A stretch of DNA of 64,000 bases, taken from a virus (lineage: Duplodnaviria > Caudoviricetes). Made by a program: the position numbers and the translations under genes. Of the stretch, positions 5,562-47,757 are shown piece by piece (positions within the stretch are counted from its first letter, which is position 1; every line of letters starts with the position of its first letter). The notes beneath the pieces were generated by a model. That model saw nothing but the letters and a program-made list of their open reading frames with translations. It ran no database searches and was not told the DNA's origin. The stretch is from IMG/VR virus record IMGVR_UViG_3300044613_001789, positions 202 through 64,201 of that record. One strand, 5' to 3'.

Positions 5562-5752
5562 CACGTTGGGCGTTACTGACAGCATCAGGTCAAGTCTTTA
5601 ACGTGTGTGTTTGGGATGGGGTCGAGGCTTGGACTGCGCCGGTCCATCTCACTGTTATTGTGTGTCCCGATTACGCTGGCCCTGGTTGGCAATACGTCGA
5701 TTCGGAGTGGTCTCTGATTCCTCCTCCTGTTGAAGAAGGCGGGGGCGACTAA
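5555..5752 (+). CDS. Small fibre-associated/chaperone-like protein
   Basis: V.NVCVWDG...W..P and GPGWQY motifs of small genes that follow Gly-rich fibre genes. Confidence 0.6.
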   Translation: MVTRWALLTASGQVFNVCVWDGVEAWTAPVHLTVIVCPDYAGPGWQYVDSEWSLIPPPVEEGGGD

Positions 5753-5753
5753 A

Positions 5754-8317: not shown

Positions 8318-8318
8318 C

Positions 8319-8414
8319 TAGACTTCTGCGACGATTTCTGTTAAAATGCGAAGAGCCGAAAGGTGTTCACCCTTTCGGCTCTTCTAAACACAAACGATAG
8401 GAAAAGTATCATCT
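8319..8414 (+). promoter_or_regulatory. Sigma70-type promoter plus 14-bp palindrome upstream of HNH gene 1
   Basis: TAGACT-N17-TAAAAT with extended TG, then GAAGAGCCGAAAGG-N7-CCTTTCGGCTCTTC. Confidence 0.8.
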
Positions 8415-15364: not shown

Positions 15365-15784
15365 CTATCTTGCTGAATCGAGTTGATGTTGAAAATGGGC
15401 GGCTAGCTCTTGGGATAGCTGGGCGTTTCGGGCTTGCTGTTCAAAGTAGGCGTTTTCAAATTGTCCCGGCTTACATAGTCGCAGAGGATAAAAACTACCT
15501 AGTTGAGCATCCATTAGGATTTGCTTGGATTCCTCAAGGCTTGCCTTGCTGTATTCAGGCAATCTCTCACAAATCAAATCGTGGAGCATGTTGGCGAATC
15601 GGCACGCCGTTTGGAAGTAGTTGCAATGGGCGATACACGCCCCTGTATTCGGATCACTAACAGTGAAATCTTTAGCCCCTACTTCACGGACGACGAAAAA
15701 GCATCCGGGCACCCTATAGGCGGGGTAACTGATGCGAGTCAATCCATCTTCACATAAAACAGATAGAATTGTATTGGTTTTCAT
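15365..15784 (-). CDS. Hypothetical early protein
   Basis: 139-aa ORF in the leftward cluster. Confidence 0.6.
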   Translation of the reverse strand: MKTNTILSVLCEDGLTRISYPAYRVPGCFFVVREVGAKDFTVSDPNTGACIAHCNYFQTACRFANMLHDLICERLPEYSKASLEESKQILMDAQLGSFYPLRLCKPGQFENAYFEQQARNAQLSQELAAHFQHQLDSAR

Positions 15785-28276: not shown

Positions 28277-29641
28277 ATGGCCGATACAATTCGAACCAAA
28301 CGGGGCACCACAAGTGCCTGGAATGCTGCTAATCCAGTGCTCGCCTTGGGCGAGCAGGGGTATGATACGACTACCAAGCAAATGAAAATTGGGGATGGGG
28401 TGACGGCTTGGAATTCGTTGGCGTACTTGGACATATCGGCAACGAATCTAACGACTGGTACGCTACCTGATGCTAGGTTGTCGGCAAAGGTTAAATCCCT
28501 GGCTGACCTAGCAACACCAGCATCGACTAGCCTGCTTGCGATGAATGCGAGTGGGGCTTTGGTTGCTGGTGAGAGTGTCGGCATGAACACCGAAGCTGCT
28601 GGCGTAACCGTTTTAGATATTGGCCTTGCTACTTCAGGATGGCCATCTTTTAAACACATTTTGCAATCGATTGCAAATGATGGTGCACCGGGAACATTTA
28701 ATCACATCTACGCTATCGGACTCAATACGAGCGTTGAATCCTTTCACGGCAACACAATACCGGGAAAACCGACGGCTATACTTGCTTTCGAAAGCAACTA
28801 CCCCGATGTTGACGGGCTTGGCCCTGAAATGTATATGGAGTTTGCAAACCTCCAACGACCGTTTTACGCTCGCTCAATCTTCGATCCTGCAACCACAACT
28901 ATCGCGGCAGGAAGCAACGGAGCATCGCTCCCTCAATCAACAATCAATGTTGCTTCGACAACGAAGTTTCCGCAGTACGGATGGATAAAGATCGGTTCAA
29001 ACACGATTGAGTACACAGGAAAGACATCGACTAGTTTTACGGGTTGCACTGGAGGTACTGGATCGCTTGCAACTGGAAACGCTGTCGAGAGTTTGTTTCG
29101 CGATAACTCAACAGTGCACATTGATATTGGCACTGACGGCCAGGGTTCGTTTTCTCTTTTTGCAGGAAAGCTAAATCCTTCGAAACTAGCATACGCTCCT
29201 CAGTCTGGAGGCTTTTTCTTTCGCGATAACGTATCGCTCCAAAGTGGTGGCGTTTTGGTGCTTTCGGCTGCTTCGATTCCTGTACTGAACGCTAATGGTT
29301 CAAGCTATTCTCCTGCTCGTCGGTACTACTCTGAAGACTTTGCCGGCGACTCGACAATCACAATCACTGCTGATTTCGTTGACGTATTTCGTGCTCGGAT
29401 CACAACTTCTGGTACACCGATCTTCGCTGCACCAACCAATCCAACAACCGGCCAAGAACTTACGATCATACTGTCGAATCGATTCGGTGGCACGACGATC
29501 AGTGGGCCAACTTGGGATGCAGTTTTTAAGATGGCTGCGTGGGGGACTAATCCAAGCCCTGGTGCGAATCGGAAGATAACGTTTGTTTATGACGGAACGA
29601 ATTGGACTGAGATATCGAGATCGGAGTTGATTGCAAACTAA
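28277..29641 (+). CDS. Fibre protein with Mtd/hyaluronidase-type N-terminal attachment domain
   Basis: KRGT...W...NPVLALGEQGYDT...KIGDG.TAWNSL.Y; TINVASTT.FP..G.IKIG; C-terminal FVYDGTNWTE. Confidence 0.85.
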   Translation: MADTIRTKRGTTSAWNAANPVLALGEQGYDTTTKQMKIGDGVTAWNSLAYLDISATNLTTGTLPDARLSAKVKSLADLATPASTSLLAMNASGALVAGESVGMNTEAAGVTVLDIGLATSGWPSFKHILQSIANDGAPGTFNHIYAIGLNTSVESFHGNTIPGKPTAILAFESNYPDVDGLGPEMYMEFANLQRPFYARSIFDPATTTIAAGSNGASLPQSTINVASTTKFPQYGWIKIGSNTIEYTGKTSTSFTGCTGGTGSLATGNAVESLFRDNSTVHIDIGTDGQGSFSLFAGKLNPSKLAYAPQSGGFFFRDNVSLQSGGVLVLSAASIPVLNANGSSYSPARRYYSEDFAGDSTITITADFVDVFRARITTSGTPIFAAPTNPTTGQELTIILSNRFGGTTISGPTWDAVFKMAAWGTNPSPGANRKITFVYDGTNWTEISRSELIAN

Positions 29642-32972: not shown

Positions 32973-33440
32973 ATGCAAATTATCAAAACCGTTCAAAAGG
33001 ATAGTCTTGTCTACTGGCCGTATGCCGGTGCTGATATGTACGGGCAACCGATCTACGGCGCTCCGGTCGTCATCAAATGCCGATGGGACGAATGCTTGAA
33101 ACAAGTATTCGACGCTGACGGTTCCCCGGTATTCTCTAAGATTGAACTTATAACCCAGATTCGGTTAGCACCGAAAGGATTAATCAAGAAGGGCAAAACG
33201 ATTCCGGTAGACGATTCCGGCTACAACGGTGAAACCCCCAGCTCCGTCATGGACGGAGACGTGTTAGACGGAGGCGGCCCTGGCGACCCGTCTACTGCTA
33301 CTTATGACGGCGGGGAGCCGGACACGATAGTCTACGCATACAACCCGAGAAACCATCCCGATGTTTTTGAGATCATAGCAGTGGAGGTTACGCCGATGCT
33401 ACGACGACGAAACGTAACATTATTTGAGGCATACGCATGA
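32973..33440 (+). CDS. Head closure protein with acidic insertion
   Basis: VYW....DMYGQP.YG.PV.IKCRW. Confidence 0.75.
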   Translation: MQIIKTVQKDSLVYWPYAGADMYGQPIYGAPVVIKCRWDECLKQVFDADGSPVFSKIELITQIRLAPKGLIKKGKTIPVDDSGYNGETPSSVMDGDVLDGGGPGDPSTATYDGGEPDTIVYAYNPRNHPDVFEIIAVEVTPMLRRRNVTLFEAYA

Positions 33441-34096
33441 CATGGCTAAATCAACTAAAAGGATGCGACGATCTCAAAGCGTTTCTTCATCATATGTCTG
33501 TCTGCGTCATTGTGTCAAAACCAGGCGGAGCCATTTTGTGGACAAACAAGGCATTTGAAGAATGGAGTGGTTATTCCTCCGAGGAGTTACAAAGAGCAGG
33601 CTGGAAACAAATAGTCGTATCCGGCGCTGATTTTGACCGTGATCCGGATGCCTCAGAACAATGGGAAGCATATTCCCCAATATACAGTATACGGACACGA
33701 TACAACAGAAAAGATGCATCGCCTTGTTGGGGTACTCTAACCGCTATGCGGTTCCCTCCGATAGGTGACATTGAGTTTTGTGTGTGTACGTGGATTCCTC
33801 ATCAAGAAACAACCAATGCGGCGTTAGACACCGCTTTGGCCGCCATCCAGAAATCAGAGAAAGCCACCAAAGAACTAAGTGATTCATTCGCCGCCTACTC
33901 GCAAATAAGCACGGAGCAACGATTTATCGTGACCGCTACAGAACTAGCTAAGAAGTACCCGAAAGTTACGTGGGCTATCATAGCTTTCGGTTTCGGATTG
34001 TTTGGGTTGAACAATGCTCTAGAGATCCTCAAAACCATCCATTTAGTGCCACCTGTCGTCACTTTGACGGCACCGACTATCCCCCAATCACCATGA
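33437..34096 (+). CDS. PAS-domain membrane protein
   Basis: GAILWTNKAFEEWSGYSSEEL...W, RYNRKD...W; coiled coil then TM helix. Confidence 0.8.
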   Translation: MTWLNQLKGCDDLKAFLHHMSVCVIVSKPGGAILWTNKAFEEWSGYSSEELQRAGWKQIVVSGADFDRDPDASEQWEAYSPIYSIRTRYNRKDASPCWGTLTAMRFPPIGDIEFCVCTWIPHQETTNAALDTALAAIQKSEKATKELSDSFAAYSQISTEQRFIVTATELAKKYPKVTWAIIAFGFGLFGLNNALEILKTIHLVPPVVTLTAPTIPQSP

Positions 34097-34875: not shown

Positions 34876-35331
34876 ATGTCGAACACAATCCTTCGTAACG
34901 GCCATCGTACCTTAATCGAAATCGTCGGTTTGACTGCCCGATTCGAAGAAGTTTCGCTCAACCCATTCGGGATTGAGGCGGACGATTCGGTCGAACAGAC
35001 CAACATGCGAACGAACAACTGGCGAGGATTCCTCGGCGGTGCTCTTTTGACTGCGACCGAAATGTCGGTCAAGGTGCATTACGCACCCGGTGCTATCGAG
35101 CAAATAGTTCCAATTCTACGAACTAATCGCGCCGTCCGAGTGATTTTCCCAGACGGTGCTAACGTACTCGTCTATGCCATCGTCCAGTCGTTCGTCCCAG
35201 ACGAACACACAACCAACGAAAAGCCAACGGCTACGTTGACCTTACGTCCGTCCAACCTCACAACCAGCAACCCACCTGCCGAAATTGGACCTGTTTACGC
35301 TACCGGAACTACAACAACTGTAGCTCCGTAA
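34876..35331 (+). CDS. Major tail tube protein
   Basis: Position; VEQTNM....WR, V.FPDG; Thr-rich C-terminal tail. Confidence 0.8.
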   Translation: MSNTILRNGHRTLIEIVGLTARFEEVSLNPFGIEADDSVEQTNMRTNNWRGFLGGALLTATEMSVKVHYAPGAIEQIVPILRTNRAVRVIFPDGANVLVYAIVQSFVPDEHTTNEKPTATLTLRPSNLTTSNPPAEIGPVYATGTTTTVAP

Positions 35332-35712: not shown

Positions 35713-36020
35713 GTGACTCAGAGTACCTTTGGTACTACGTGGCACACGAAACAGGCTGTCCAAGTGTCCAAATCCTCAAGGAGTATCTTACTTACGAGGA
35801 TCTGGAAAAATGGATGGCCTATTTTTATAGACGGAAGCAGGAACGCGAAAAGCAGGACTGGTACTTAGCGTCTATTGCTCACATAGTAGCATGTACGATG
35901 GGTCAGAGTAAAACGAAGATCGAAGACCACTTACTGAAATTCAGCAATGAAACTCCAGCCCCTAACCCCGACGCCTCTAAGGCGATGTGGTTGAAGGCTC
36001 TAGGGATTAAAGAAATATGA
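35706..36020 (+). CDS. Tail assembly chaperone frameshift extension (T)
   Basis: -1 frame reads VLSDSEYLWYYVAHETG...WMAYF...DWYLASIA. Confidence 0.8.
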   Translation, partial: VLSDSEYLWYYVAHETGCPSVQILKEYLTYEDLEKWMAYFYRRKQEREKQDWYLASIAHIVACTMGQSKTKIEDHLLKFSNETPAPNPDASKAMWLKALGIKEI

Positions 36021-38332
36021 GCGGCCCATCTCGCGAACTACCTCCATTAGTCGTAAAGATTACGGCGGATCCGTCTGTATATCTCAAGGCGTTAGATAAA
36101 ATGGTCCGGGCTACGCAGAAAGCAGCGGCCCAGATAGAGAAGAGTTTGGGCAAGGCGGCTAAAGGCGGAGGTCCGGGCGGCCCTCCGCGAGGTCCAGGAG
36201 GCGGAGGTAAGTTAGGTTGGCGAACAGAGGTTAAATGGCTCGGCAAGCACTTAGACGGCAGACGTAAGTTCGGTCAAGATTTATCTAAGATGATCGACAA
36301 ACAGACCAGAGAGCAAGCCCAACAGCACTCCAAGAACCTCGGAGACGAGATATCCCGCGAACTCAAAGCTCAGCGCAGTCGCAAACAGATATCCGATCAG
36401 CGTGCCGCTGAAGAACACCGGCAGCTCCGTCGCCAACGGATGCGACAAGTAAGCCGTCTGAAGGAAAAGGGAGTTACCGGACGCAAGGCCCGCATGGCGG
36501 GCGGCGGGCGTATGGGTGCCATGATGCAGGGTCTAGACGGCGGTAGTATGATGGGTGCCCGTGCTGATATGTACATGCATAAGCAGTCATTAGGCGGCCT
36601 TTTAGGCGGTGTGGCTAGCTTCCTGAAACCAGCAGCGGAGATGGAAACCTACGCCATAACAATCGGTCAATTTTCTAAGAGTGCCGAAGAAGCTAAAGCC
36701 ACCTTAGCTGAGATGCAGGAATTTGCATTGATATCTCCATACTCTATGGAATCCGTAGTCCAAGGCACATCTCTGATGATGCGATACGGCATGGCTGCTG
36801 GTGATGCTGTCAAGATGACTAAGATGCTGGGTGAGGTAGCCGGAGGCAATAGTGCCAAGATGGAACTGTTGGCTCTCGCAGTCGGCCAGACGACTTCTAT
36901 GGGTAAGCTAATGGGGCAAGAACTCCGTCAGATGACGGAGCACGGCTTCAATCCATTACAGATAGCAGCGGAGCAAATGCTAGGACCGCTCGCCGATCCT
37001 AAGGCCGTCAAGGAGAAGGTGCTAGAACTCAGCAAGTTGATGCGAGCAGGTAAGATCGACGCCGGATTGGTCACTGCCGCATTGGAGATATCTACATCCA
37101 AGGGAGGTAAATACGCCGGGCAAATGGAGAAGCAGGCTAATAGCGTATCCGGCCTAACTTCACAGATCGTAGAGTCGCTCAAGATAGCAGCAGCAGTGAT
37201 AGGTCAAATATTCGAGGATGATACTAAAAAAGCATTAAAGTCCGTGCTTAAGTATGTTACTGATATCATTAAATACTTACGTGACCCCAAGAATAGGGAA
37301 TTTATTAAGGCATGGGGATACTTCGTCATTAAAGTAATTGCTGCTATAGCTGCGTTTCACGCACTAGGATATGTTATAGCTAAGGTCAAATGGCTTTTCG
37401 GGTCATTGGTAATGGTGTTGCAACTGTTGCTTCCGTTGTTTAATTTACTTAAATGGGCAGTGATGGGAATAGCTAGAGCTGCTATCGGCCCTGTAGTAGC
37501 CTCATTCTTTACTATGTACGGGGCTATTATTGCAACAACTGTCGTTGCATTAGCATTAGGGGCGGCTCTCGCCTATGTAATGTATCATGCAAACGCAGAC
37601 ATCCAGAAATACAATGAAGAGCTAAAGAAATCCAATGAACTAACAGATAAGTTATCCAAGCATCATGCATCAAAACACGTACAAACGATGCTTGAGATCC
37701 GCACCGAAAAAGATCCTGCCAAACGCAAGGAGCTAGCAGAGAATGCCTTGAAATCGGCCAAAATAGAACTACAAGGCAAGGAGAGCCAGATATCGCAACA
37801 AGAGCAGCTAGTAGCCAGCTTAGAGCCTACGATAGCGTCAGCATATCAAGGTGGACGTAAAGTATGGGAAGGAGAATCCGCTACTTTAGAGCAACTGAAA
37901 CAACAGAGAGAAGCCCAGGCTAAACGAGTCGCAGAACTACAAGGCATTGTATCACCAGCCGCCCCCGGTGCCGGAGGATTGGTGACCCCGGATGCCCCAG
38001 ACTGGGCTAAAGACCCAGCTAGTGCCGCAGCACACTTCAAGTCGTTCCTTGGAGGAGGGGATGCCGAAGACGGCGACAACATGCCCAGTACACAATCTGC
38101 TTACCGTAGAGGATCAAGCGAGCACGCTCTAGCCCTATACAACCACGATGCGATGAGTATAGGTGAATCTGCTGCTGCTCGCGAAGAAGCAGAGAAGAAG
38201 CAGAAGGAAAAAGAAAAGATCGATTTACTACAGCAAATCGCAACTAACACTAAAATACAGGCTGGATTAAATTCAGTAGGTACGGTAGCCGGTGACATGG
38301 TCGCTGGTTTCCTGTCCGGAGGTAGAAAATGA
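36017..38332 (+). CDS. Tape measure protein
   Basis: A.GQ....GKLMGQELRQM...GFNPL domain, hydrophobic segment, coiled coils. Confidence 0.93.
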   Translation: MSGPSRELPPLVVKITADPSVYLKALDKMVRATQKAAAQIEKSLGKAAKGGGPGGPPRGPGGGGKLGWRTEVKWLGKHLDGRRKFGQDLSKMIDKQTREQAQQHSKNLGDEISRELKAQRSRKQISDQRAAEEHRQLRRQRMRQVSRLKEKGVTGRKARMAGGGRMGAMMQGLDGGSMMGARADMYMHKQSLGGLLGGVASFLKPAAEMETYAITIGQFSKSAEEAKATLAEMQEFALISPYSMESVVQGTSLMMRYGMAAGDAVKMTKMLGEVAGGNSAKMELLALAVGQTTSMGKLMGQELRQMTEHGFNPLQIAAEQMLGPLADPKAVKEKVLELSKLMRAGKIDAGLVTAALEISTSKGGKYAGQMEKQANSVSGLTSQIVESLKIAAAVIGQIFEDDTKKALKSVLKYVTDIIKYLRDPKNREFIKAWGYFVIKVIAAIAAFHALGYVIAKVKWLFGSLVMVLQLLLPLFNLLKWAVMGIARAAIGPVVASFFTMYGAIIATTVVALALGAALAYVMYHANADIQKYNEELKKSNELTDKLSKHHASKHVQTMLEIRTEKDPAKRKELAENALKSAKIELQGKESQISQQEQLVASLEPTIASAYQGGRKVWEGESATLEQLKQQREAQAKRVAELQGIVSPAAPGAGGLVTPDAPDWAKDPASAAAHFKSFLGGGDAEDGDNMPSTQSAYRRGSSEHALALYNHDAMSIGESAAAREEAEKKQKEKEKIDLLQQIATNTKIQAGLNSVGTVAGDMVAGFLSGGRK

Positions 38333-39345
38333 CGACAACCCCACTCCCAACAACGACGTTTCCGCCGTTGCCGTTTAATCCACTAATTACACCCAGAGTC
38401 GTAGGCCCGCTAGCCACTCGCTTCCAGCGAGACGAAGACGGCCACCGCACCTACGAGATCGACTGGCACGTACAGACGGCGTTATATGAGCATAATATAG
38501 CTCATATTCTAGCTAACTGGCCGTTGTTTGGAGTTGGGCATCCGTACCAATTATCGCCATTATGGCCAGAAAGCATCGGCGTAGATACCTGGGCGTTCTT
38601 GACGCCCACTCTCAACATCGCCCCGCATCCCGACGTAGCCGAGTATTCGAAATGTCGTGACTGGGTAGTCACGCAGGTGTGGACTACGAAGCATTCATGG
38701 CGGTGTAACGTATTCCCAGTGGAGAATCCCCTTCTGGAGCCTGTTCATTTAACAGGTGATTTCGTTCACGAAACCCGAGAGATGACGGTAGACAAAGACG
38801 GTAAGCCGCTACGATTCCCGAACTTCGAGCCGATTACCGGCCCTCTTACTGAGAATAGAATATCCTATCCTACGCTCAGTATTACATTCAACTCTGCCGG
38901 ACTGCCTATCACAACGTACACCCTATTGATGAATAACGTCAATGATGCGGTACTTTGGGGCTTACCTCCGCGATGCGTTCGGTTTGTGGATGCTAAGTGG
39001 GAACGAAAGGTGTACGGTCGCTGCGGCTACTATTTCACAATCACCTACACATTTGAAATAAATCAAAACACATTCGACAATGAGATTCCGGCTCAAGGTT
39101 CTATGGAAAGGGTCAACTTGTCCGCTGACTATATGAACCCAGAAAGTTTCATCCGAGCCAAGTCAAAAAGTGGAGAGAACATTTCTGTTCCGTTGGATAT
39201 CAACGGAAGCCGCCTTGAAAAGATAGGTATGACTCCGGGCGGCGATCCTATCTGGAGATACCCGCAGCACATCCTTAAACCAAAAATCTACAAGGAAGGT
39301 AACCTACTTCTCCTTGGCATTCCATCGGATATTTCAAGTCTATAA
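38329..39345 (+). CDS. Tail tip/distal tail protein
   Basis: Directly after TMP; NPLLEP, VND...WG.PPR.V; Thr/Pro N-terminus. Confidence 0.65.
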   Translation: MTTTPLPTTTFPPLPFNPLITPRVVGPLATRFQRDEDGHRTYEIDWHVQTALYEHNIAHILANWPLFGVGHPYQLSPLWPESIGVDTWAFLTPTLNIAPHPDVAEYSKCRDWVVTQVWTTKHSWRCNVFPVENPLLEPVHLTGDFVHETREMTVDKDGKPLRFPNFEPITGPLTENRISYPTLSITFNSAGLPITTYTLLMNNVNDAVLWGLPPRCVRFVDAKWERKVYGRCGYYFTITYTFEINQNTFDNEIPAQGSMERVNLSADYMNPESFIRAKSKSGENISVPLDINGSRLEKIGMTPGGDPIWRYPQHILKPKIYKEGNLLLLGIPSDISSL

Positions 39346-39824
39346 TGTCACATCATGAATCCGTCAATCCGTCTCAAATAGGTGCTTCCGGCGACCGGGC
39401 TACTTTCATCCTGAAAGCCGTTTACCAAGAATACGCCACCTCGCGGGCGATATCCGTCACACATGCTTACGACTTCGTAAACGAGGACGAGGAGTCTGCT
39501 TGGCAGACTGTACAGCGTATCAGTCCGTCGAAAGAACAACCGATCAATTTAGGGCATCTAGAAGGAAAGTATCCTATACTGGTACTTTCCCACGACTTAC
39601 CGAAGCTCGCTCCAAATACCCCGGATATCCTCAAAAACGCACAGGAAGCCAACACCATCGTCCTCACCAACGCCGATGGCGTTGTTGTCGGACTGTTACG
39701 GGCAAAGCGGTCTACGGTAGTCGAATATCCATTTCCAGTATTCGCCAAGTCCACTACGGCGACCACCCTTTTAAGCATTACTGCGATCCCGGTGAAGCCG
39801 TATGAAAACATACCGACTAAGTGA
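39345..39824 (+). CDS. Putative tail protein
   Basis: Coupled ORF in the tail operon. Confidence 0.55.
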   Translation: MSHHESVNPSQIGASGDRATFILKAVYQEYATSRAISVTHAYDFVNEDEESAWQTVQRISPSKEQPINLGHLEGKYPILVLSHDLPKLAPNTPDILKNAQEANTIVLTNADGVVVGLLRAKRSTVVEYPFPVFAKSTTATTLLSITAIPVKPYENIPTK

Positions 39825-42222
39825 AGCGGATCGCCAGCTATTAGAAAATTTACTTAGACAAGATGGCGCTGCGCCTCCTACTCGTCCACGCGGTGATAGC
39901 GAGATAGAGGTAGCGGTAGACGAGAACGAATACTGGGCAAAGCCGCCTGCTGGTTCCGGTATTCCGGGTGCCGTGTCTGTCGGAGGCACAGTGACGCCCT
40001 CCGGAGTCTATTGCGCCATCTACAAGCGGAGACTAGGCGAACCGAATCTAGTTCAGATGAAGTACCCGGACAATACTCCGGTACTTCGCCCCGTCTACAA
40101 CTATTCTCCTGTCGGTGTTATGGATATGTCTCCCATATCCCAACACAACGACGGGACTTGGGTTGTAGGAGCTACTCCGGTACGCCCATCCCGCAACTGC
40201 GGCTGTTCGGGCTACGGAGTTTGGGTCGCCAACTCTAATTTGATTTGGGAATGGCCTACCGGTCAGTGCGGTGACGCTACGACTACTGCCGCACCCGGAA
40301 CTACGGCAGCACCGTCTTCAACAACAACGACTACTAGCCTTCCTGTTCCTACGACGCCTAGTTCGTATTGCCAAGACTATCGCTGCATGCTGGTATGCGG
40401 CACACCGTCGCCGCCTACGGCGGCTCCTACGACCACAGGAAGCGGAACAACCAGCGAAGCCCCTCCGACTACTACATTCGCTCCCGGATTGATCTACTAC
40501 TTAGCGTCAGGAGCATCCTGTCCTGGTGGCTGTACCTGCTACGGTTTAGGAGATCCTTGTTGGGAAGAAGCGGCGGAAGTGTTATCTGTCTGCGGCGGAG
40601 TCATTACAACTCTTCCGCCGACTACCTGGAACCCTTCGGATAACGCATGCGCTTGGGCAGTAACAGCTATCGGAACTATCCCGCCGCTCACACGGCGATA
40701 CGCCCATAAGATGCCGGATGAGGCATGGGCACTATGCGGCCCGACGCTCACATCCTACGGTGAGATCTATCCGCTCGGGTTCGATCAAGCCGGCTACCAG
40801 AAGCACAATAATCAAGATAAAGTAGGTATCTACCAAACCGGCTACGTCTTGATGGCAGCGAAACATAGTGCCGTCACCGACAAAAAGCTAATATACGCAA
40901 TGTCCTATTCAGGACAAACGGCCAGTTGGTCCGGCAGTCCATACATCATCACCGATGCAGCTACCAGCACTTATCGAGTCTACTGGGAATCCACAGGCGA
41001 ATCCCTACGGCCCATCGGGCACCATGTGCCCCCGGTATGGCTACCGCAAAGCCCGTCTGCTGATTACCTCAAGAGTGTCGGCATTACGCAAATCAATTCA
41101 TCCGTCTACGCCTTTGACGCCAGCTTCGCAGGCGAGGGGCGATACGGCGATGAGGTATTAGCGGAAGGGTTCCTACAAACGCCGGTGCTTACTCAGCCTC
41201 AGTTAGCGAGACACGCTACCGTGTCGAGCCCCGGTAACTGCGGCTTCGTTCGTCCTGATTTCTGTCCTACTGCCGCCGGTGAATGCTGGGTAGGTCCGTG
41301 TGCTCCCGGCGCTAACCACCTGACTCCTACCGATCAGATTTGTTTCCTAGATAAGTGGCCTAGAGGGACGACTACTGGCGGACCCTACTTAAATCCATGC
41401 GTAGACGTAGACGGTAATATTTGCAACTGCCCTACGACCTTCCCGCCCGCTGCTACTTCGGCGTGTCCGCCGACTACTTCCCTCGGGCCGGTGCCGTGTG
41501 CCGGTTACTGTGAGTACCTAAGTGACGGTATCCGATGGAACTTGATGAAGCCGGGATGCTCTAGTGAACTTTCGTGGTGCGGGTGCGCTCAGCCTAGCTG
41601 CGAAGTCGCAGCACCTAATTCTAAAACTTACACCCTGTGCTACGATACCAGGACACCGACTACCTCCGCCCCGACGTGCAAATGTTGCACGCCGACAACC
41701 ACTATCGGTCCTACCTGCTCCCATTCGCTCTGTCATTACGAAGTATCCGCAGGTAAATGGACGCTAGTAACGGCTAAAGGTACCTGTCCTCCTGAATGCC
41801 CTTGCCCTGAACCGGAAACCCTGTTACCGCCAATCCACTCCTGTAGCAAACTAAAGCTAAGGTGCGGACCCGCACCTGACTACCGGGAAATCAAGATTAC
41901 GTTTATCGACTGGGTAGAAGTCACTGATGTTAAGTCGCCGTTCTTCGGTAAGAAAAAGGCTACCGGCACCGTATTTTGGGCTACCAATCCTAAGTTACTT
42001 GGTAAGACGGTAACGCTGTACGATCATTGGTGCATCCTGGATGCACCTAGCGAAGACTTAGAGGGCTTCAAAATGATCGCATCGTGGGGCGTCACGGAAT
42101 CCGAGGCGTGCAATGCCGCCCCCGGCGATCCGACTCCGTATCACTGGTCGCTCACCGACCGCTGCTGCGACGGTATTTCTGGTTCGCCTGGAGGAAACAA
42201 CATCGACGGAGGTGGTCCGTAA
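39802..42222 (+). CDS. Cys-rich, Thr/Pro-rich tail-tip protein
   Basis: Repeated small Cys modules (CPGGCTC, CGFVRPDFC, CGCAQPSC, CPPECPCPEP) separated by TTTAAP-type linkers. Confidence 0.8.
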   Translation: MKTYRLSEADRQLLENLLRQDGAAPPTRPRGDSEIEVAVDENEYWAKPPAGSGIPGAVSVGGTVTPSGVYCAIYKRRLGEPNLVQMKYPDNTPVLRPVYNYSPVGVMDMSPISQHNDGTWVVGATPVRPSRNCGCSGYGVWVANSNLIWEWPTGQCGDATTTAAPGTTAAPSSTTTTTSLPVPTTPSSYCQDYRCMLVCGTPSPPTAAPTTTGSGTTSEAPPTTTFAPGLIYYLASGASCPGGCTCYGLGDPCWEEAAEVLSVCGGVITTLPPTTWNPSDNACAWAVTAIGTIPPLTRRYAHKMPDEAWALCGPTLTSYGEIYPLGFDQAGYQKHNNQDKVGIYQTGYVLMAAKHSAVTDKKLIYAMSYSGQTASWSGSPYIITDAATSTYRVYWESTGESLRPIGHHVPPVWLPQSPSADYLKSVGITQINSSVYAFDASFAGEGRYGDEVLAEGFLQTPVLTQPQLARHATVSSPGNCGFVRPDFCPTAAGECWVGPCAPGANHLTPTDQICFLDKWPRGTTTGGPYLNPCVDVDGNICNCPTTFPPAATSACPPTTSLGPVPCAGYCEYLSDGIRWNLMKPGCSSELSWCGCAQPSCEVAAPNSKTYTLCYDTRTPTTSAPTCKCCTPTTTIGPTCSHSLCHYEVSAGKWTLVTAKGTCPPECPCPEPETLLPPIHSCSKLKLRCGPAPDYREIKITFIDWVEVTDVKSPFFGKKKATGTVFWATNPKLLGKTVTLYDHWCILDAPSEDLEGFKMIASWGVTESEACNAAPGDPTPYHWSLTDRCCDGISGSPGGNNIDGGGP

Positions 42223-42797
42223 TGGGAACGAAGCGATGTTGCTGCGGGTGTCCGCTAATCACTAAGCCGTGGAGACGGGCTAGCCTCAACTTTTTAGGAA
42301 TGGATTTCGAAGTGGAATTTCCAGAAACCCCAGATGAGGCTTGCTGTCAGCAAGAAATAAGCGTTTGTAAGGATATCGGGGAGCCGGTGCTGCTCGGAGA
42401 CTGCTACATAGATGCCTATGATTGGACGCTCATTAATCCCGGTGACTACCTAAGCATGACTGGTCCTTGGTGCGATTGGCCTTTAGTTGTTCTGCCGCTT
42501 ACGGCAGTGGACTCCTGCTGTAATTCGTCTAACTATAGGATTGAATGGAAAGGGAGAAATAGGATCAGATTTTGGGTTTGGAAACAGGCTTATGTTAGAT
42601 TCACTATCTGCTATTGCCGAACGGCAGATGGTAAGCCGGGCTACCGGATGAAGGTGGAGATAAATTGGCGTATAACTTTAATCCAAAATCTTTCCCGGTT
42701 AATTAAGTACCGGCACCGTAAGTACACTCGCGTTTGTTGTGAATCCGGTACCACAGACGGTCCTGAACCTACCACCAACGCTCCTGAGCCACAATAA
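42222..42797 (+). CDS. Cys-rich putative tail-tip protein
   Basis: TAATG overlap; starts MGTKRCCCGC. Confidence 0.7.
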   Translation: MGTKRCCCGCPLITKPWRRASLNFLGMDFEVEFPETPDEACCQQEISVCKDIGEPVLLGDCYIDAYDWTLINPGDYLSMTGPWCDWPLVVLPLTAVDSCCNSSNYRIEWKGRNRIRFWVWKQAYVRFTICYCRTADGKPGYRMKVEINWRITLIQNLSRLIKYRHRKYTRVCCESGTTDGPEPTTNAPEPQ

Positions 42798-42805
42798 GGT
42801 AATAA

Positions 42806-43960
42806 ATGTCTACTATATGTTGCGAAGGTACCTGTGAATGGATCTGGTTGGCCGCCTCTAGCACCTGGATCGAAGAAACCTTTAACTGTAATGTCGGGGA
42901 GAATGGTTGTACGTGCCCCGACGGACCTCCGCCAACTCCAGGTAGCGAGGATCTAGAGCGGCAGGTATACGGATTGTGTCAAGGTGAATGCGAGGGGTGG
43001 ACAACCACCCCTGCGCCGACGACTACGCCGGCTCCTACGACGACGCCGGAGGCGACGACTACTGAGACTCCTACTACGACGCCGGAGGCGACGACGACGC
43101 CGGCTCCTACGACGACGCCGGAGGCGACGACTACTGAGACTCCTACGACGACGCCGGAGGCGACGACTACTGAGACTCCTACTACGACGCCGGAGGCGAC
43201 GACTACACCGGCTCCCACGACGACCGAAGAGCCTTGGACGACTACTTCTACAACCACGACAACAAAACCCCCGACGACGCCGGAGGCGACGACTACACCG
43301 GCTCCTACTACGACGCCGGAGGCGACGACCACGCCGGCTCCTACTACCCAGCCACCGACTACGCCCCCCGGAGGAACCACAACGTGCGAGCCGGGGTCGC
43401 AGTCATGTATCTCTGATCCTCCGGAGCCGGGGTGGACAGACAATAGCGGAGACAACATACCGAATACTCCGTTCTTACGACATGGACAACTGGGTATGAC
43501 GCCTTGCTCTACCCGACCGCCTCTGATTCCAGTCTTCGATCCTGCTTGCATCGGATCTTGCTCCGAGATCGCTTTGATACCTGGATGCCTAGATCCGGCC
43601 AACTTCTATGTCGAGCAGTACTGCACTGACGAAGAGGTCGTCACTTGTTTCGGAACAGGCACTATCCGTGTACCGTCTCGCTGGAACATAGTAGGCTTCG
43701 ACGGATTCGGCCAGACGAATTTCGATAGAGCCGGTACATGGGAATCCGGGATACTAGAGCTTACTCCTTCGTGCAACGAAGACGAAGGCGATAATCCTAT
43801 GATAATCGAGGTATCTCGATTAGCGGAAGATATCATCTTGGTCGAAGATTGCAAAGATGTCTACGGGGCCAGCATAGGGCCACTAAAAATTAGCATTCCT
43901 GATATTATTCAAGTCTGCGTCACCCGAGACGGAACAACGTCAGCACCATGTCCGATCTAA
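42806..43960 (+). CDS. Mucin-like Cys-rich protein
   Basis: Central TTTPAP/TTTPEA/TTTETP array flanked by Cys-rich domains. Confidence 0.85.
   Translation: MSTICCEGTCEWIWLAASSTWIEETFNCNVGENGCTCPDGPPPTPGSEDLERQVYGLCQGECEGWTTTPAPTTTPAPTTTPEATTTETPTTTPEATTTPAPTTTPEATTTETPTTTPEATTTETPTTTPEATTTPAPTTTEEPWTTTSTTTTTKPPTTPEATTTPAPTTTPEATTTPAPTTQPPTTPPGGTTTCEPGSQSCISDPPEPGWTDNSGDNIPNTPFLRHGQLGMTPCSTRPPLIPVFDPACIGSCSEIALIPGCLDPANFYVEQYCTDEEVVTCFGTGTIRVPSRWNIVGFDGFGQTNFDRAGTWESGILELTPSCNEDEGDNPMIIEVSRLAEDIILVEDCKDVYGASIGPLKISIPDIIQVCVTRDGTTSAPCPI
43001..43384 (+). repeat. Degenerate 18-bp coding tandem repeat
   Basis: ACGACGACGCCGGAGGCG, ACGACTACGCCGGCTCCT, ACGACTACTGAGACTCCT units. Confidence 0.95.
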
Positions 43961-44349
43961 GTCCGCTAGAGCAATATATCACCCAAATGCTGGCCAAGCA
44001 TAACCTAACTGCCGGGGCCGTATCGCTTATGCCTGAAGTAGTGGCGGCAGAGCCGCCTGCTATGTCGGCGACGGCGTTAGGGCCACAGTTATGGCGAGAG
44101 CTATTCCTTCAGGTGTTTACACCTTCTGAATTGATGAGCTGGAAGAGCCGAATTCCTCGCTACGGGTGCTCCTGTAGTTCGTTCTATGGCAACTGGGAAA
44201 AGTCGAATCCTCCGACTTTTCCGTTGACGTTTAGTTGGAAATACCGGCTCAAGGCTGCTGTCAACGAGAAGTTGAAGCAGCCGCAGTTGACGGAAGAACA
44301 GGCTAGGGAGTATTGGCGCAGTCAAGGATTACTTGACTCTACTATCTAG
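43948..44349 (+). CDS. Erv1/Alr-like sulfhydryl oxidase homolog (divergent)
   Basis: LGPQLW..L, IP..GCSC..FY, NPP, F.W...L...VNEKL..P...EEQA...W follow Erv spacing, but CxC replaces CxxC and KA replaces HN. Confidence 0.6.
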   Translation: MSDLSPLEQYITQMLAKHNLTAGAVSLMPEVVAAEPPAMSATALGPQLWRELFLQVFTPSELMSWKSRIPRYGCSCSSFYGNWEKSNPPTFPLTFSWKYRLKAAVNEKLKQPQLTEEQAREYWRSQGLLDSTI

Positions 44350-44361
44350 ATTAGCTATACT
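44333..44361 (+). promoter_or_regulatory. Sigma70-type promoter for the GT2 fusion gene
   Basis: TTGACT-N17-TATACT. Confidence 0.7.
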
Positions 44362-44393
44362 GATCCTTTCTACTTCCACAACAAGGATATCTT

Positions 44394-46418
44394 ATGCCTC
44401 GATACACGATAACTATGGCAACTTTCGATGACTTTTCGGGAGTTTTCTTTTCTATTCAGGCTCTTAGGATGTACCACGATCTCACGGATTGTGAGATCGT
44501 CATCCTAGACAACAATCCAAAAGGACCGCACGGTCAAGACTTAAGAAACTTCGTCAACAACTCCCAGAACGCTTCTGTTCCTATTCGTTACCACGAATTT
44601 GCGGAGAGCGTCGGCACATCGGCTACCCGGCATAAATTATTTGATTTAGCTCAAGGGGAACTCGTTGTTGTTATGGACTGCCACGTCCTCCTAAAAGCTG
44701 GTGCCATTGCGAAGATGAAGCAGTTCTGGGAGTCTGCGGACGCCGACATGAAGAAGAATATGTTCACAGGTCCATTGCTCATGGACTGTATGCAACATCA
44801 CCAGACGCATTTCGAGTGCATTTGGCGGGCGGAGATGAACGGCGTGTGGACGACCGCTTGGCGCAAGGAGGGTAAGTATTGGATAGCTTCCGAAGCCGAA
44901 AACGGCACCAAGGTCCAGATGCGAGAACTCCTAACCGGTAAACTCGGTTTTGAGTTCAAGCATACGTGGTCCGGTCACGAGCACGCAGCGAAGAAGCTCG
45001 GCTTCGAGTTGGCCGGATGGGGTGACGATAATGATATCTTCGAGGTGCCGGCACAAGGGCTTGGTATGTTCGCTGCCGCGAAAGAACACTGGTTAGGTTT
45101 TAATCCGCACCATAAACATTTTGGAGGTGAGGAGTGCTACATCCACGAAAAGTACCGGCAAGCCGGTAGGAAGACCTACTGCCTACCTTGGATGGCTTGG
45201 AACCACCGTTTTGGTCGCCCCGAAGGACCGAGATACCCGATTACCCGCGAAGGTAAGATGCGGAACTACGTGCTTGAGTTCCAAGAGCTAGGGCTTGACC
45301 TAGAGCCTATACGCCACCACTTCATCGATGAGATCAAACTCAAGCCGGAGTTATGGGATAAGCTAATCGCTGATCCCATTAACTTTGACCCCTATTCTGG
45401 GTGGGCGGCTAACACCGCCCCCGAAACCATGAAGCCGGTGCTGAAGTCGAATTTCGGTATGCCGTTGCCGTTAAACATCGACGATCTCAACAGCATGGCC
45501 GTTGAGATCTCCGCCAATAAGCGAGATCTAGAAAACCACTTTCAGAAGTTCTATGAATACGGCGGACTGTGTAATTCAGCGTTGGAAATCAGTAAGCGTC
45601 GTGAAACGACGATGTGGTTGGCTGCTGCCTTGGTTCAGGGGGCCAAACGCTGTGATCGCACCAAGTGCGATAAGGAGAAGTGCGATAAGCAATGCCGGAT
45701 GCCTCGGCTAGTGTCGTACCAAGCGGAGCGAGATACGCTCCTAGAGCTTATCAAGGAAGCCGTCGAAGGGAAGCTCCAGTATACGGATGTTGATAATCCA
45801 ATCACCAATCCAGTGCCGAAGGTAGAAGGTAGGTTTGATTGTCTGTATATTCACTCCCGGCATACCTTCGCCGACTTGTCGGCGCAGTTAGCCGAATTCG
45901 GTCCCCGAATCGATAAGTACATCATGCTTAACGGTACTTCCGGTAGCGGCGGCTCCGGCATCAAGGGAGAGGACGGAAAGACGCCATCGATGCTACATGC
46001 CATCAAGATGTTCGTCAAGACGAACCCAGAATGGTTTGTCGTCTATCATACGGAAGCCCAGTACGGGATGACGGTGCTGTCTAGGGTGCAAGAGGACCGT
46101 GGAACGGTCATTACGCCTTGGCCGATGACGGATGATAACGGGGTTGCATGTGGTCCCGGCGCAGAGCTTAAAAAGATCCTAAAAACGATAGGCATCGAGT
46201 CTACTGCTGATTGCGCCTGCAACCGACATGCGGCTAAGATGGACGCAGACGGGCCTGATCTATGCGAGAAAAACATAGAAGAAATCCTCGATACTTTGAA
46301 GAAGGAAGCCGATAACCGGGGACTGGGTACCGTATTCGTCAGGCCGTTCGTCAAGATGGCAGTCATGCGAGCCATTAAGAAGGCTCGCAAAAAGATTGCT
46401 TCTGGTGAGTGCGGCTAA
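44394..46418 (+). CDS. GT2 glycosyltransferase fused to a degenerate class I methyltransferase-like domain and a Cys-containing C-terminal domain
   Basis: IVILDNNP, VVMDCHV, GFNP....FGGEE.YIHEKYR, W.HRF; then DCLYIHSRHT...KYIMLNGT; then GPGAELKKIL...CACN. Confidence 0.85.
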   Translation: MPRYTITMATFDDFSGVFFSIQALRMYHDLTDCEIVILDNNPKGPHGQDLRNFVNNSQNASVPIRYHEFAESVGTSATRHKLFDLAQGELVVVMDCHVLLKAGAIAKMKQFWESADADMKKNMFTGPLLMDCMQHHQTHFECIWRAEMNGVWTTAWRKEGKYWIASEAENGTKVQMRELLTGKLGFEFKHTWSGHEHAAKKLGFELAGWGDDNDIFEVPAQGLGMFAAAKEHWLGFNPHHKHFGGEECYIHEKYRQAGRKTYCLPWMAWNHRFGRPEGPRYPITREGKMRNYVLEFQELGLDLEPIRHHFIDEIKLKPELWDKLIADPINFDPYSGWAANTAPETMKPVLKSNFGMPLPLNIDDLNSMAVEISANKRDLENHFQKFYEYGGLCNSALEISKRRETTMWLAAALVQGAKRCDRTKCDKEKCDKQCRMPRLVSYQAERDTLLELIKEAVEGKLQYTDVDNPITNPVPKVEGRFDCLYIHSRHTFADLSAQLAEFGPRIDKYIMLNGTSGSGGSGIKGEDGKTPSMLHAIKMFVKTNPEWFVVYHTEAQYGMTVLSRVQEDRGTVITPWPMTDDNGVACGPGAELKKILKTIGIESTADCACNRHAAKMDADGPDLCEKNIEEILDTLKKEADNRGLGTVFVRPFVKMAVMRAIKKARKKIASGECG

Positions 46419-47023
46419 TGCCATGCACCACAAGCGCACGGACCTTCATCCATATCGCAACGGATACCTCCGTTGCTTCTATAGGTAGCGGCAGGTAGGT
46501 CTTCTTTCTTGTACCGGAGATCGAGCAGCAATTGCTGCTCATCTCCAAAGTCGAACTGATTGTCGTTGCACATTCGCCCGTAAACCGCAAACTCTTCTAT
46601 CCTATCAATAGCTCGTAACGCGATCCCGTCGCTAACAACGTCTCCGACGTTCCAACCGCGAATACGGCAGACTTCGGCAGAACTTAGGTTCCAGCCGTCC
46701 GCAATCACGATAGGATTCTTAGCGTCGATCCAATAGACCGGCTTGCCGGTCTTAATAAGTGATTTCACGAATCCTAGGGGGACTCCCTCTACCGCCACCA
46801 CTACTACGGCATCAATATCCATCTCAATGCTGACACCTAAATCAAACAATCTGATTTCGTAACTGTTCTGTAAATGACCAACAACCACGCCCTTCATTCC
46901 GTTCATGTAGCAGACTGTTTTAATCTTATCGGCAAAAGGTAACGCAGCCAAGGCCGCCTTGACGGCGGCCACTTGATCCGGGTGCCGTAAGTTGTAGATA
47001 TTGCCGGTTAGCAGTATTCTCAC
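46415..47023 (-). CDS. Hypothetical protein
   Basis: 202-aa ORF at the end of the leftward operon. Confidence 0.55.
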   Translation of the reverse strand: MRILLTGNIYNLRHPDQVAAVKAALAALPFADKIKTVCYMNGMKGVVVGHLQNSYEIRLFDLGVSIEMDIDAVVVVAVEGVPLGFVKSLIKTGKPVYWIDAKNPIVIADGWNLSSAEVCRIRGWNVGDVVSDGIALRAIDRIEEFAVYGRMCNDNQFDFGDEQQLLLDLRYKKEDLPAATYRSNGGIRCDMDEGPCACGAWH

Positions 47024-47757
47024 TGCATACCTCCCCTGAAAATGGATGCCATCTCATAAATGCTTTTCATAACAGCACTATAGCCCGGTTTCACCGGGCC
47101 AGTGACCCGAGCTTCCGGAATTTCTCGATATTTCCAGACGCCTGCGTCAATATGTCCGGATGAATGGTTGTCACCGGTAGCTTCCCAGTTGTAGATGTAA
47201 CTAGGATACTTCTGCTGCCGAGGACCGCCGAAGCGGTCTTGTAGCCGTTGGAGGAAATGCGTATCGAAATCCGCTCGCAGGGTATCTTGGTTCAGATACC
47301 CTCCGATCTCCTCTAAGGCATCAGTGCGGTACGCACTACTAGCCCAGAAGCGACCGCCGGATTGCTCTATCTGCATCCGTCCGCCCCAGGACGAGAACAC
47401 TTCCTTCGGATACGACCACGGATGATCCTTTAGGATCGCTGCGTGCTGGGAGAGGTGGTCCGGCAGGTATCCGTCGTCATCGTCCATGACGCAGACGTAA
47501 TCGTAGTGCAGGCCAACACTGTTGAAGCCTAGATCATACTTCGCCATTAGCGATCCTGCTCGCATTGCCATAGGCTCGAAAAATACTGCCCTGCCCTTTA
47601 CGTCCATCATCGCTTTATCCGGCAGTGGATTCACCCGGTCGTCTACGACGACCAAGGTAGCCGGTCCATCGTAATCCTGATCGTAGAATGCCTGAATCAA
47701 GGATTCCAGCCATTCTTGGCGATGGTTGTAAACTGCCGTCAAACATAAGAAGCTCAT
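47020..47757 (-). CDS. GT2 (GT-A fold) glycosyltransferase
   Basis: CLTAVYN, QDY, LVVVDD, VMDDDDGYLPDHL. Confidence 0.85.
   Translation of the reverse strand: MSFLCLTAVYNHRQEWLESLIQAFYDQDYDGPATLVVVDDRVNPLPDKAMMDVKGRAVFFEPMAMRAGSLMAKYDLGFNSVGLHYDYVCVMDDDDGYLPDHLSQHAAILKDHPWSYPKEVFSSWGGRMQIEQSGGRFWASSAYRTDALEEIGGYLNQDTLRADFDTHFLQRLQDRFGGPRQQKYPSYIYNWEATGDNHSSGHIDAGVWKYREIPEARVTGPVKPGYSAVMKSIYEMASIFRGGMQ

Follow-up and report, generated by a model that had tools for sequence, protein, structure and literature searches.

Candidate glycosylation and disulfide-forming systems, each paired with Cys-rich tail-end proteins, in a Caudoviricetes virus of freshwater

We analyzed the tail end of a tailed phage (Duplodnaviria; Caudoviricetes), the IMG/VR virus record IMGVR_UViG_3300044613_001789, and found that it carries genes for two putative protein modification enzymes. 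One, g674, is a fusion protein starting with a family 2 glycosyltransferase (GT2) domain, and the other, g133, belongs to a divergent branch of the Erv1/ALR family. In other viruses each of these enzymes is encoded beside a Cys-rich partner protein of its own, and the partner of the GT2 fusion also bears threonine arrays. The record is 64.2 kb long with a completeness estimate of 92%, and the window, that is, the whole stretch of 64,000 nucleotides analyzed here (positions 202 to 64,201), covers nearly all of it. The reading that we favour, to which we give a probability of roughly one half, is that the Thr arrays of the tail-end proteins would be O-glycosylated in the cytoplasm and that disulfides would be formed enzymatically in these proteins. 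The genes in question are the following.

34,876 to 35,331, plus strand: g151, probable major tail tube protein, a role suggested only by its position before the chaperone-like open reading frames (ORFs) and the tape-measure gene.
36,017 to 38,332, plus strand: tape-measure protein (TMP; PF20155, E 5.1e-19; PHROG 9959, E 8.9e-24), with 0 Cys.
38,329 to 39,345, plus strand: g338, post-TMP tail-end protein with the N-terminus MTTTPLPTTT; phmmer homologues in 37 GT2 loci.
39,345 to 39,824, plus strand: g159, small conserved tail-end protein; homologues in 23 GT2 loci.
39,802 to 42,222, plus strand: g806, modular protein of 806 aa with 44 Cys (5.5%).
42,222 to 42,797, plus strand: g191, 191 aa with 15 Cys and the N-terminus MGTKRCCCGCP; its ATG overlaps the g806 stop (TAATG).
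42,806 to 43,960, plus strand: g384, with 20 Cys (5.2%), made of a Cys-rich N-domain, a Thr/Pro array and a Cys-rich C-domain.
43,001 to 43,384, plus strand: Thr/Pro array of g384 (aa 66-193, 128 aa), a tandem DNA repeat.
43,948 to 44,349, plus strand: g133, Erv1/ALR-like protein of 133 aa with Cys74-x-Cys76; its first 13 nt overlap the g384 gene.
44,394 to 46,418, plus strand: g674, 674 aa, with a GT2 domain (about 1-330), a degenerate CmcI/rhamnosyl-O-methyltransferase-like domain (about 380-570) and a C-terminal CxC...C domain.
47,020 to 47,757, minus strand: g245, second GT2-like protein (PF00535, E 0.0021, below the curated cut-off).

The GT2 fusion had at least 356 relatives, carried by at least 582 IMG/VR viral contigs. 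We examined 79 loci from the best 80 of these contigs; the GT2 ORF was found in 69 and a readable upstream gene in 65, ten GT2 loci as well as 21 loci of the genome assemblies described below being left out because the ORF caller had lost the glycosyltransferase gene. A neighbouring protein was counted as a partner when it contained at least 4% Cys together with a 30-aa window of at least 40% Thr. The gene directly upstream of the GT2 fusion combined both properties in 53 of the 65 loci, and either of the two upstream genes did so in 58, versus 2 of 291 other ORFs of at least 300 aa in the same loci. This result bears out the association between GT2 fusion and Cys-rich Thr-array protein that a preliminary description of this DNA had proposed to look for in other phages. 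The partners typically contained 6-13% Cys, and their best 30-aa windows were typically 50-100% Thr. The pairing was present in 17 of 19 GT2 clusters (50% identity) and in 27 of the 31 loci lacking a g338 homologue. Of the 44 loci where no relationship of the partner to g806 could be detected, 38 had it as well. The 54 unique partners resembled beads on a string, with a median of 7 Thr-rich segments of median length 16 aa, and these segments were composed of 57% Thr, 11.5% Pro and 11% Ser. Seven loci lacked the pairing: four were near the threshold, one encoded such a protein three genes upstream, and only L167 and L172 were true exceptions. In L167 (positions 6000-9075, minus strand) the N-terminal part of g806 was a separate gene of 216 aa, followed by a 435-aa protein beginning with MARLGKCCC and by a 371-aa Erv fusion; the GT2 fusion and a g245-like gene were convergent to these, about 2 kb away.

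The association extended to cells. Full-length GT2 fusions in genome assemblies came mostly from Planctomycetota and had a Thr-array neighbour in 12 of 18 readable loci. Homologues limited to the glycosyltransferase (GT) domain were found in Chloroflexota, Proteobacteria and others; here 12 of 35 loci had a Thr-array protein encoded no further than two genes upstream, versus 4 of 236 other ORFs. Several of these cellular neighbours combined a Tat-like signal (RRQALK) with a Cys-rich domain and a long poly-Thr array, an arrangement that looks like the cellular counterpart of the phage pairing. The recurrence of the GT domain beside unrelated Thr-array proteins is the best argument for protein Thr as the acceptor. 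Small proteins with the signal, Cys-rich domain and array just named lay upstream of the GT-domain homologues in L216, L225, L238, L248 and other loci (Chloroflexota and other bacteria).

The Erv-like genes had partners of another kind. Pattern scans of IMG/VR provided 103 loci, 23 of them on contigs with a g133-type gene and 80 being the best of 279 contigs with a canonical one; six were cut inside the gene and excluded. In 95 of the 97 readable viral loci, a same-strand ORF of at least 100 aa ended at the start of the Erv-like gene (the two exceptions lay at the start of the locus). The Erv-like gene overlaps the stop codon of this partner gene. The adjoining of Erv-like gene and Cys-rich protein, noticed earlier in the window, was thereby found to be general. 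Cys made up 3.8-9.1% of the upstream proteins, which typically had 31-44 Cys residues within 430-510 aa, whereas the background in these loci was a median of 1.26%, with 4.9% of 574 other ORFs of at least 150 aa reaching 4%. The upstream median was at least 4% in 16 of 17 Erv clusters (70% identity). Most of these proteins began with MG..G.CCC.CC, a motif common to g191. Among 59 unique partners, with a median pairwise identity of 22%, 20 Cys columns were conserved in at least 90% of sequences, and column conservation was 0.89 for Cys versus 0.40 for other residues. The usual gene order was TMP, a protein of about 290 aa, one of about 110 aa, the Cys-rich partner and the Erv-like gene, beyond which came early or replication genes. 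Some Erv-like genes carried an extra fused segment of about 270 aa of unassigned family, and these fusions of 371-431 aa were the last gene of the tail module. Among the 95 Erv loci lacking a GT2 fusion, just 3 had any ORF that reached the 40% Thr threshold.

The preliminary description had grouped substrate, oxidase and transferase into one cassette, and the comparison of loci did not support this. An Erv-like gene was present in only 2 of the 79 GT2 loci, and blastp detected a GT2 fusion in 2 of the 103 Erv loci, both near-identical relatives of the window, although only 48 of 97 Erv loci reached at least 2.5 kb past the Erv gene. Both enzymes occurred together only in the lineage of the window and in one other locus. 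Co-occurrence across phages was hence verified for each enzyme with its own partner and failed for the Erv-like gene and the GT2 fusion taken together. In L004 and L005, whose GT2 fusions are 58% identical to g674, a g806 homologue was directly followed by the GT2 gene, without g191, g384 or an Erv-like gene; this order indicates that g191-g384-g133 is a separate module within a GT2-type tail end. The genes g338, g159 and g806 are homologous to the three genes found ahead of the GT2 fusion in other loci, and they had no homologues among the Erv partners. Conversely, the Erv partner of L010 and L011 is a single protein of 362 aa; g191 corresponded to its N-terminal half (phmmer E 4e-76 against L011) and the C-domain of g384 to its C-terminal half (E 8e-81); g384 also matched a 194-aa protein of L009, which is without the array (E 3.6e-46). 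The g191/g384 split recurred in L002 and L009, which indicates that the splitting of the partner into two genes is real. In phages otherwise near-identical to ours (GT2 fusion 97% identical), the Erv-like gene was only 50% identical to g133, and the g384 homologue, of 434 aa, had an array of 155 aa. The g384 homologues seen without a GT2 fusion (L009, L010 and L011) had no Thr array. Judged from gene order and homology, we read the window as a GT2-type tail end with an inserted and exchanged Erv-type module, g191-g384-g133. The gene g202 (46,415-47,023, minus strand), lying between the two glycosyltransferase genes, was 68% identical in relatives where its neighbours were 97-99% identical, and an unrelated 200-aa protein took its place in L005; this position is a local hot spot of exchange.

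The three Cys-rich proteins g806, g191 and g384 follow the tape-measure gene, at the coordinates given in the preliminary description, and they stand out from the 71 window ORFs of at least 100 aa, whose median Cys content was 1.5%. The array of g384, previously given as about 125 aa between Cys-rich domains, contained 68 Thr, 29 Pro and 0 Cys, with Trp144 as sole interruption; it was built of the units TTTPAP (six copies), TTTPEA (six) and TTTETP (three), and flanked by 8 Cys on its N-terminal and 12 on its C-terminal side. Its DNA was a tandem repeat of period 36/108 with 84-94% matches (Tandem Repeats Finder). Short-read contigs of four runs ended within it, and a divergent strain had an in-frame 15-nt insertion after position 43,342. 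In g806 the Thr-rich linkers spanned aa 159-179, 200-225 and 618-625. Apart from these two proteins, Thr-rich stretches in the window were restricted to the N-terminus of g338, to g159, to one fibre-like ORF and to the C-terminus of g151, where a Thr tail (YATGTTTTVAP, a Thr-rich 10-aa window) is a possible further glycosylation site; g151 had homologues in 18 GT2 loci. No N-terminal hydrophobic signal was seen in g806, g191 or g384 when judged by eye, in agreement with the earlier observation.

These genes lie directly downstream of the TMP gene and no sheath-sized gene was present, as expected for the tail-tip module of a siphovirus. The order TMP-g338-g159-g806 was kept in relatives, and in its 23 GT2 loci the g159 homologue always had the g338-like gene on one side and the Cys/Thr-rich gene on the other. 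The phmmer matches of g806 were proteins of 897-1173 aa encoded upstream of GT2 fusions in other phages, and its N-terminal 130-200 aa or so are likely a tail adaptor. Pfam and PHROG searches gave no matches for the tip proteins, g338 included, and PHROGs were empty for all nine non-TMP proteins scanned; the roles of the tip proteins are thus deduced from their position.

The 674-aa protein was correctly recognised beforehand as a GT2 fusion: PF00535 matched aa 26-118 above cut-off (E 8.5e-7) and was found in 35 of 35 aligned relatives. The residues D39, D95-x-H97 and F243-G-G-E-E247 were invariant in the family, which fits a metal-dependent GT-A enzyme. The DxH and FGGEE motifs have what we take to be a likeness to GT27, the ppGalNAc transferases, a kinship that profile searches did not support: no GT27 or GT7 chain of the PDB was matched by the GT-domain profile at E≤1, and PF02709 appeared in only 3 of 22 members with a best E of 0.014. 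Besides the GT2 domain, relatives matched PF04989 (RMNT_CmcI, 13/35), PF13578 (Methyltransf_24, 12/35) and PF19668 (DUF6171, 7/35). The methyltransferase-like middle domain appeared intact in many relatives. In the window copy it gave no Pfam match, PF04989 included, and family-conserved residues were lost (D487 replaced by H, in 1 of 35 sequences, and HD513-514 by NG); for these reasons the methyltransferase-like domain of g674 is probably inactive. The second GT2-like protein, g245, had phmmer homologues in 39 of the 79 GT2 loci. The genomic association with Thr arrays is what suggests that g674 may be a Thr O-glycosyltransferase.

Relatives of g133 were recovered by an exhaustive HMMER search (209 representatives at E≤1e-3, 45 at E≤1e-10). 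A word-based search returned only g133 itself, and NCBIfam had no match to it, giving otherwise only sub-threshold EPS transferase matches. In the ESM Atlas no Erv-like match was obtained with g133 (best score 0.85; pLDDT of its Atlas model 0.41), and a canonical member from L029 gave no usable match. The alignment of 75 relatives had the consensus LWxELH...IPxYGCxCxxFY...W...LHNAVNxKLGKP. The profile of this family matched the structures of ALR (3mbg, E 4.5e-13), of a further cellular Erv1/ALR chain (2hj3, E 1.7e-10), of African swine fever virus (ASFV) pB119L (3gwl, E 1.2e-11), of Erv1 from plants and yeast (about E 1e-10), of Erv2 (E 1.7e-5) and of mimivirus R596 (E 8e-4), and PF04777 was found at E≤1 in 55 of the 75 relatives. 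The g133 subfamily, called F/K below, amounts to about a quarter of the relatives and has its own invariant residues, with Gln or His at the site of yeast Erv1 Lys171; compared with the canonical subfamily it scored 99.9% in hhalign (E 2.4e-35). Through the family profile only, g133 is assigned as a divergent Erv1/ALR homologue, and the name "Erv1/Alr-like" used earlier was right at this level of homology.

W49, C74 and C76 were invariant in all 75 aligned sequences, the F/K subfamily included, and the invariance of the Cys pair suggests that thiol chemistry is still under selection in the family. Among 130 parsable relatives of the 150 listed, the spacing was CxC in 117, CxxC in 9 and Cx3C in 4. 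Of the residues aligned with the flavin adenine dinucleotide (FAD) contacts, g133 kept W49, Y72, W97, V105 and N106; in the numbering of yeast Erv1, the equivalents kept were those of G91, W95, Y128, W157, V165 and N166. The canonical subfamily retained H, N and K at FAD-contact positions; the His was kept in 98 of the 130 parsed relatives and replaced by K in 30. A further candidate relative, P0161 (1792 aa, 11 stretches), was discarded by eye as a repeat-driven false positive. In P0123 and P0151 the Erv-like domain was joined to other domains, with a phosphoribosyltransferase-like motif (IVIVDDSSCSG, by eye) after the Erv-like part of P0151.

When prokaryotes were scanned with one genome for each species, five cellular relatives of the g133 subfamily emerged, all in Pirellulaceae/Pirellula: they came from two complete Pirellulaceae genomes, one of which had two copies, and from two metagenome-assembled genomes. 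The prophage copies in Pirellulaceae showed the same tail-end arrangement of a Cys-rich gene and an Erv-like gene. In a sample of 301 genomes from their phylum, a match to the Erv-like gene (E≤1e-5) was confined to the starting genome, and this near-absence indicates that the gene belongs to phages and prophages and not to the cells. The phage host is probably a planctomycete bacterium. Neither g133 nor a canonical member matched any phage among 50,697 GenBank phage records, the sole hit being a giant virus present in that collection.

From the sequences, homologies and conserved pairings described above, we infer a virion location for the targets, their O-glycosylation and disulfides, a cofactor and a cytoplasmic site of modification. 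Two phage-encoded systems would act on the siphovirus-like tail-end proteins late in infection, in the cytoplasm of Planctomycetota. The cytoplasmic site is suggested by the missing signal peptides, as judged by eye, and by the assembly of tails in the cytoplasm. The GT2 domain of g674 would transfer sugar from a nucleotide sugar to Thr hydroxyls in the g384 and g806 arrays and linkers, and possibly in the termini of g338 and g151; g245 may then lengthen the glycan. The Cys-x-Cys pair of g133 would introduce or rearrange disulfides in its partner, g191 plus g384, and the canonical Erv-like members presumably hand electrons to FAD and O2. The tail end would in this way bear a fibre resembling beads on a string, stapled covalently and coated with glycan.

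Several of our observations weigh against this reading. Besides the rarity of loci with both enzymes and the gene order of L004 and L005, 77 of the 79 GT2 loci had no Erv-like gene within about 10 kb, and GT2 partners without an Erv-like gene reached 13% Cys, which implies that the Erv-like enzyme is not generally needed. Direct searches with g133 found no match in Pfam (PF04777 not even at E 10), PHROGs or PDB sequences, and the profile of its subfamily alone matched ALR at only E 0.038. Instead of a FAD-proximal CxxC, g133 has C74-S-C76, aligned to the CEEC of ALR one residue short; according to passages of PMC3509050, described Erv enzymes have CxxC as their FAD-proximal pair, with CxC reported for shuttle disulfides alone. 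Moreover, g133 has K102 for H162, A103 for N163, Q111 for K171 and F53 for the His of WxxxH. In yeast Erv1, His162, called invariable in a passage of PMC4721541, sandwiches Trp95 and FAD's adenine ring; FAD binding is accordingly doubtful for g133, which lacks this stacking His and Lys171. No thioredoxin or glutaredoxin partner (PF00085 or PF00462 at E≤1) was detected in the 64-kb record, itself 92% complete, and no nucleotide-sugar gene was recognised among the window ORFs scanned. The GT2 fusion of L167 has no Thr array in its locus, and the solved chains closest to the GT-domain profile were TarP (6h1j, E 3.7e-8) and TarS. Finally, ORF calling was simple and greedy, the thresholds were set after viewing the data, and much of the synteny may reflect shared descent rather than repeated association.

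The two observations on the glycosyltransferase just given, on L167 and on TarP and TarS, together with the lack of recognised sugar-activation genes in the phage, would suit another role for this enzyme. The GT2 fusion and g245 might modify a polymer of the host envelope or a lipid-linked glycan, for receptor masking against superinfection or for release, as with the prophage enzyme TarP, and the Thr/Pro arrays would be unglycosylated spacers. TarP and TarS do act on polymers, and Thr/Pro linkers are often unmodified spacers. The matches to TarP and TarS were however limited to the generic nucleotide-binding half of the domain (aa 2-120), and the pairing frequencies in phages (58/65 versus 2/291) and in cells (12/35 versus 4/236) are hard to explain unless protein Thr is the acceptor, so that we consider this explanation unlikely. 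For the Cys-rich side, the clusters could bind Zn or Fe-S, the Erv-like protein being an assembly factor or chaperone that has lost its redox function at least in the F/K subfamily. The N-terminal CCCxC clusters resemble metal sites, the tail-tip protein gpL of phage lambda holds an Fe-S cluster, and both the residues replaced in g133 and the equally Cys-rich partners of GT2-type phages agree with such a role. The Cys pair was nevertheless invariant in 75 of 75 members, F/K included, with His in 98 and CxC in 117 of 130, and 31-44 Cys distributed over the full length of a partner are more in keeping with disulfide-rich modules than with a handful of metal sites; we give this explanation only a small chance.

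A further possibility is that the Erv-like protein, together with the Cys-rich tail end, serves as an entry device, binding or breaching the Cys-rich planctomycete envelope by thiol-disulfide exchange. The hosts being Pirellulaceae and the position of the Erv fusions at the close of the tail module would agree with this, as would the presence of Cys-rich YTV proteins in planctomycete cell-wall preparations, mentioned in a passage of PMC8567305. This explanation however presupposes that the Erv-like protein is part of the virion, Erv enzymes form disulfides and do not break them, and the tail proteins had no Pfam YTV match, which makes it very improbable. Returning to the modification of tail-end proteins, a wider generalisation can be put forward only tentatively, as we hold its chances to be below even: planctomycete tailed phages would run their own cytoplasmic oxidative folding and mucin-type decoration, a CxC oxidase of the Erv lineage, a lineage described until now in eukaryotes and their large DNA viruses alone, stapling the tail-end protein and a Thr-tract GT2 coating the linkers, and the same GT family, acting on Tat-exported Cys-rich Thr-array proteins of Chloroflexota and other bacteria, would be a new class of cytoplasmic protein O-glycosyltransferases.

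Outside the tail end, the plus strand of the record carried terminase, portal, capsid and tape-measure genes (Pfam and PHROG matches), and the minus strand a replication block with PolA, RecA-like, clamp-loader and SbcCD-like genes; no tRNA gene was present in the window. Neither the window DNA nor that of the region matched any of 50,697 deposited phage records. The stretch recurred in 24 lake-water or freshwater metagenome runs, with at least half of the sampled words in 19 of them (two runs being possibly the source), and none of the listed runs containing it was an RNA run. A sulfotransferase (PF17784, E 1e-33; 63-812, plus strand) and an FkbM-type methyltransferase (PF05050, E 7.7e-15; 10,575-11,222, minus strand) could provide further glycan decoration by sulfation and methylation or act on another target; homologues of the two were absent from the 79 GT2 loci. 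Three plus-strand genes (2946-4256, 4263-5561 and 5730-7598) had a raised G+C content of 0.56-0.63, and this block encodes a protein with a glycine-rich domain and a 622-aa Laminin_G_3 (ConA-like) protein, likely further fibres or receptor-binding proteins; g806, g191 and g384 are thus not necessarily the sole parts in host recognition. Directly after the capsid gene, a 454-aa protein (28,277-29,641, plus strand) had an N-terminal Mtd_N domain (major tropism determinant, E 8.6e-13). The head-tail connector region included a 219-aa protein (33,437-34,096, plus strand) with a PAS_9 match (E 4.2e-5) of 24.2 bits for a curated cut-off of 27, which is unusual within a structural module. The ORFs at 8415-9110 (plus), 9880-10,578 (plus) and 15,365-15,784 (minus) contained 4.8-5.6% Cys and had no Pfam family. 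In the structural module of L005, positions 169-600 encode a lipoprotein-like protein of 143 aa (MRILLLCLMLCSYGC...) whose CSWC motif recalls proteins of the thioredoxin fold (by eye).

If our reading is true, virus-driven cytoplasmic disulfide formation would extend to bacteria, through an Erv-derived family of tailed phages (209 clusters; 279 plus 23 contigs). Enzymology, and the production of disulfide-rich proteins in the bacterial cytoplasm, would then have naturally occurring CxC versions of the Erv active site at hand. The presence of the GT2 fusion on at least 582 contigs would suggest that the receptor-binding structures of phages are widely glycosylated and that there is a family of Thr-tract-directed protein transferases. 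The two systems would also open a first molecular route to understanding how phages cope with the unusual envelope of planctomycetes, and direct testing is feasible, as two cultured Pirellulaceae strains, both with a complete genome, carry Erv-module prophages. Full-text literature searches, judged on titles, abstract openings and passages, found among the papers listed no report of an Erv-type oxidase of a tailed phage, nor any of phage tail proteins that are Thr-rich and O-glycosylated; passages of PMC13576161 describe disulfides in the tails and capsids of phages but no oxidase encoded by the phage.

Vaccinia E10R is a viral oxidase of the Erv family. Virus-encoded Erv oxidases are presented as a hallmark of large eukaryotic DNA viruses, and are also found in eukaryotes and baculoviruses, in passages of PMC10598087 and PMC3509050; according to the latter they make virion disulfides in large DNA viruses, and compact viral forms have the FAD-proximal disulfide only. 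The g133 family resembles these compact forms in its small size and single Cys pair, and ASFV pB119L, mimivirus R596 and baculovirus Ac92/P33 in having a homologous, virus-encoded domain next to Cys-rich virion genes. Unlike them, it occurs in tailed phages of bacteria, has CxC in 117 of 130 relatives and, in g133, is without the FAD-stacking His; unlike the poxvirus-type relay, it had no thioredoxin- or glutaredoxin-like carrier among the phage genes. The best solved relatives, 3mbg and 2hj3, belong to the cellular Erv1/ALR enzymes (yeast Erv1, human and rat ALR), from which g133 differs by having neither a shuttle disulfide nor the CX16C structural disulfide, by its CxC and by the replacement of H162 and K171.

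As for the glycosyltransferase, A064R of the algal chlorovirus PBCV-1 joins a GT-A transferase to a sugar methyltransferase and serves N-linked capsid glycans; g674 is like it in architecture, by joining a GT and a methyltransferase-like domain. The prophage-encoded TarP and its relative TarS have poly-ribitol-phosphate as acceptor and no Thr-array neighbours, unlike the g674 family. Mucins share the succession of Cys-rich domain, Pro/Thr array and Cys-rich domain, an analogy only, since no Pfam mucin, VWD or CysD match was found here and the proposed site is cytoplasmic, not secretory. Glycosylated Ser/Thr-rich regions are known in bacteria from the S/T-rich intrinsically disordered regions of streptococci (PMC12041528). 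The nearest precedent for the glycosylation system is that of the mycobacteriophages, whose capsid and tail-tube subunits carry glycans according to a passage of PMC12619734 citing Freeman 2023. According to the same passage, phage-encoded glycosyltransferases probably act there on virion proteins in the cytoplasm, and the glycans are located on terminal stretches, as the C-terminal Thr tail of g151 would be. The system described here, known from its genes, differs by its putative targets, long internal Thr arrays of Cys-rich proteins, by its enzyme, a GT2-methyltransferase-like fusion adjoining its target, and by its planctomycete hosts.

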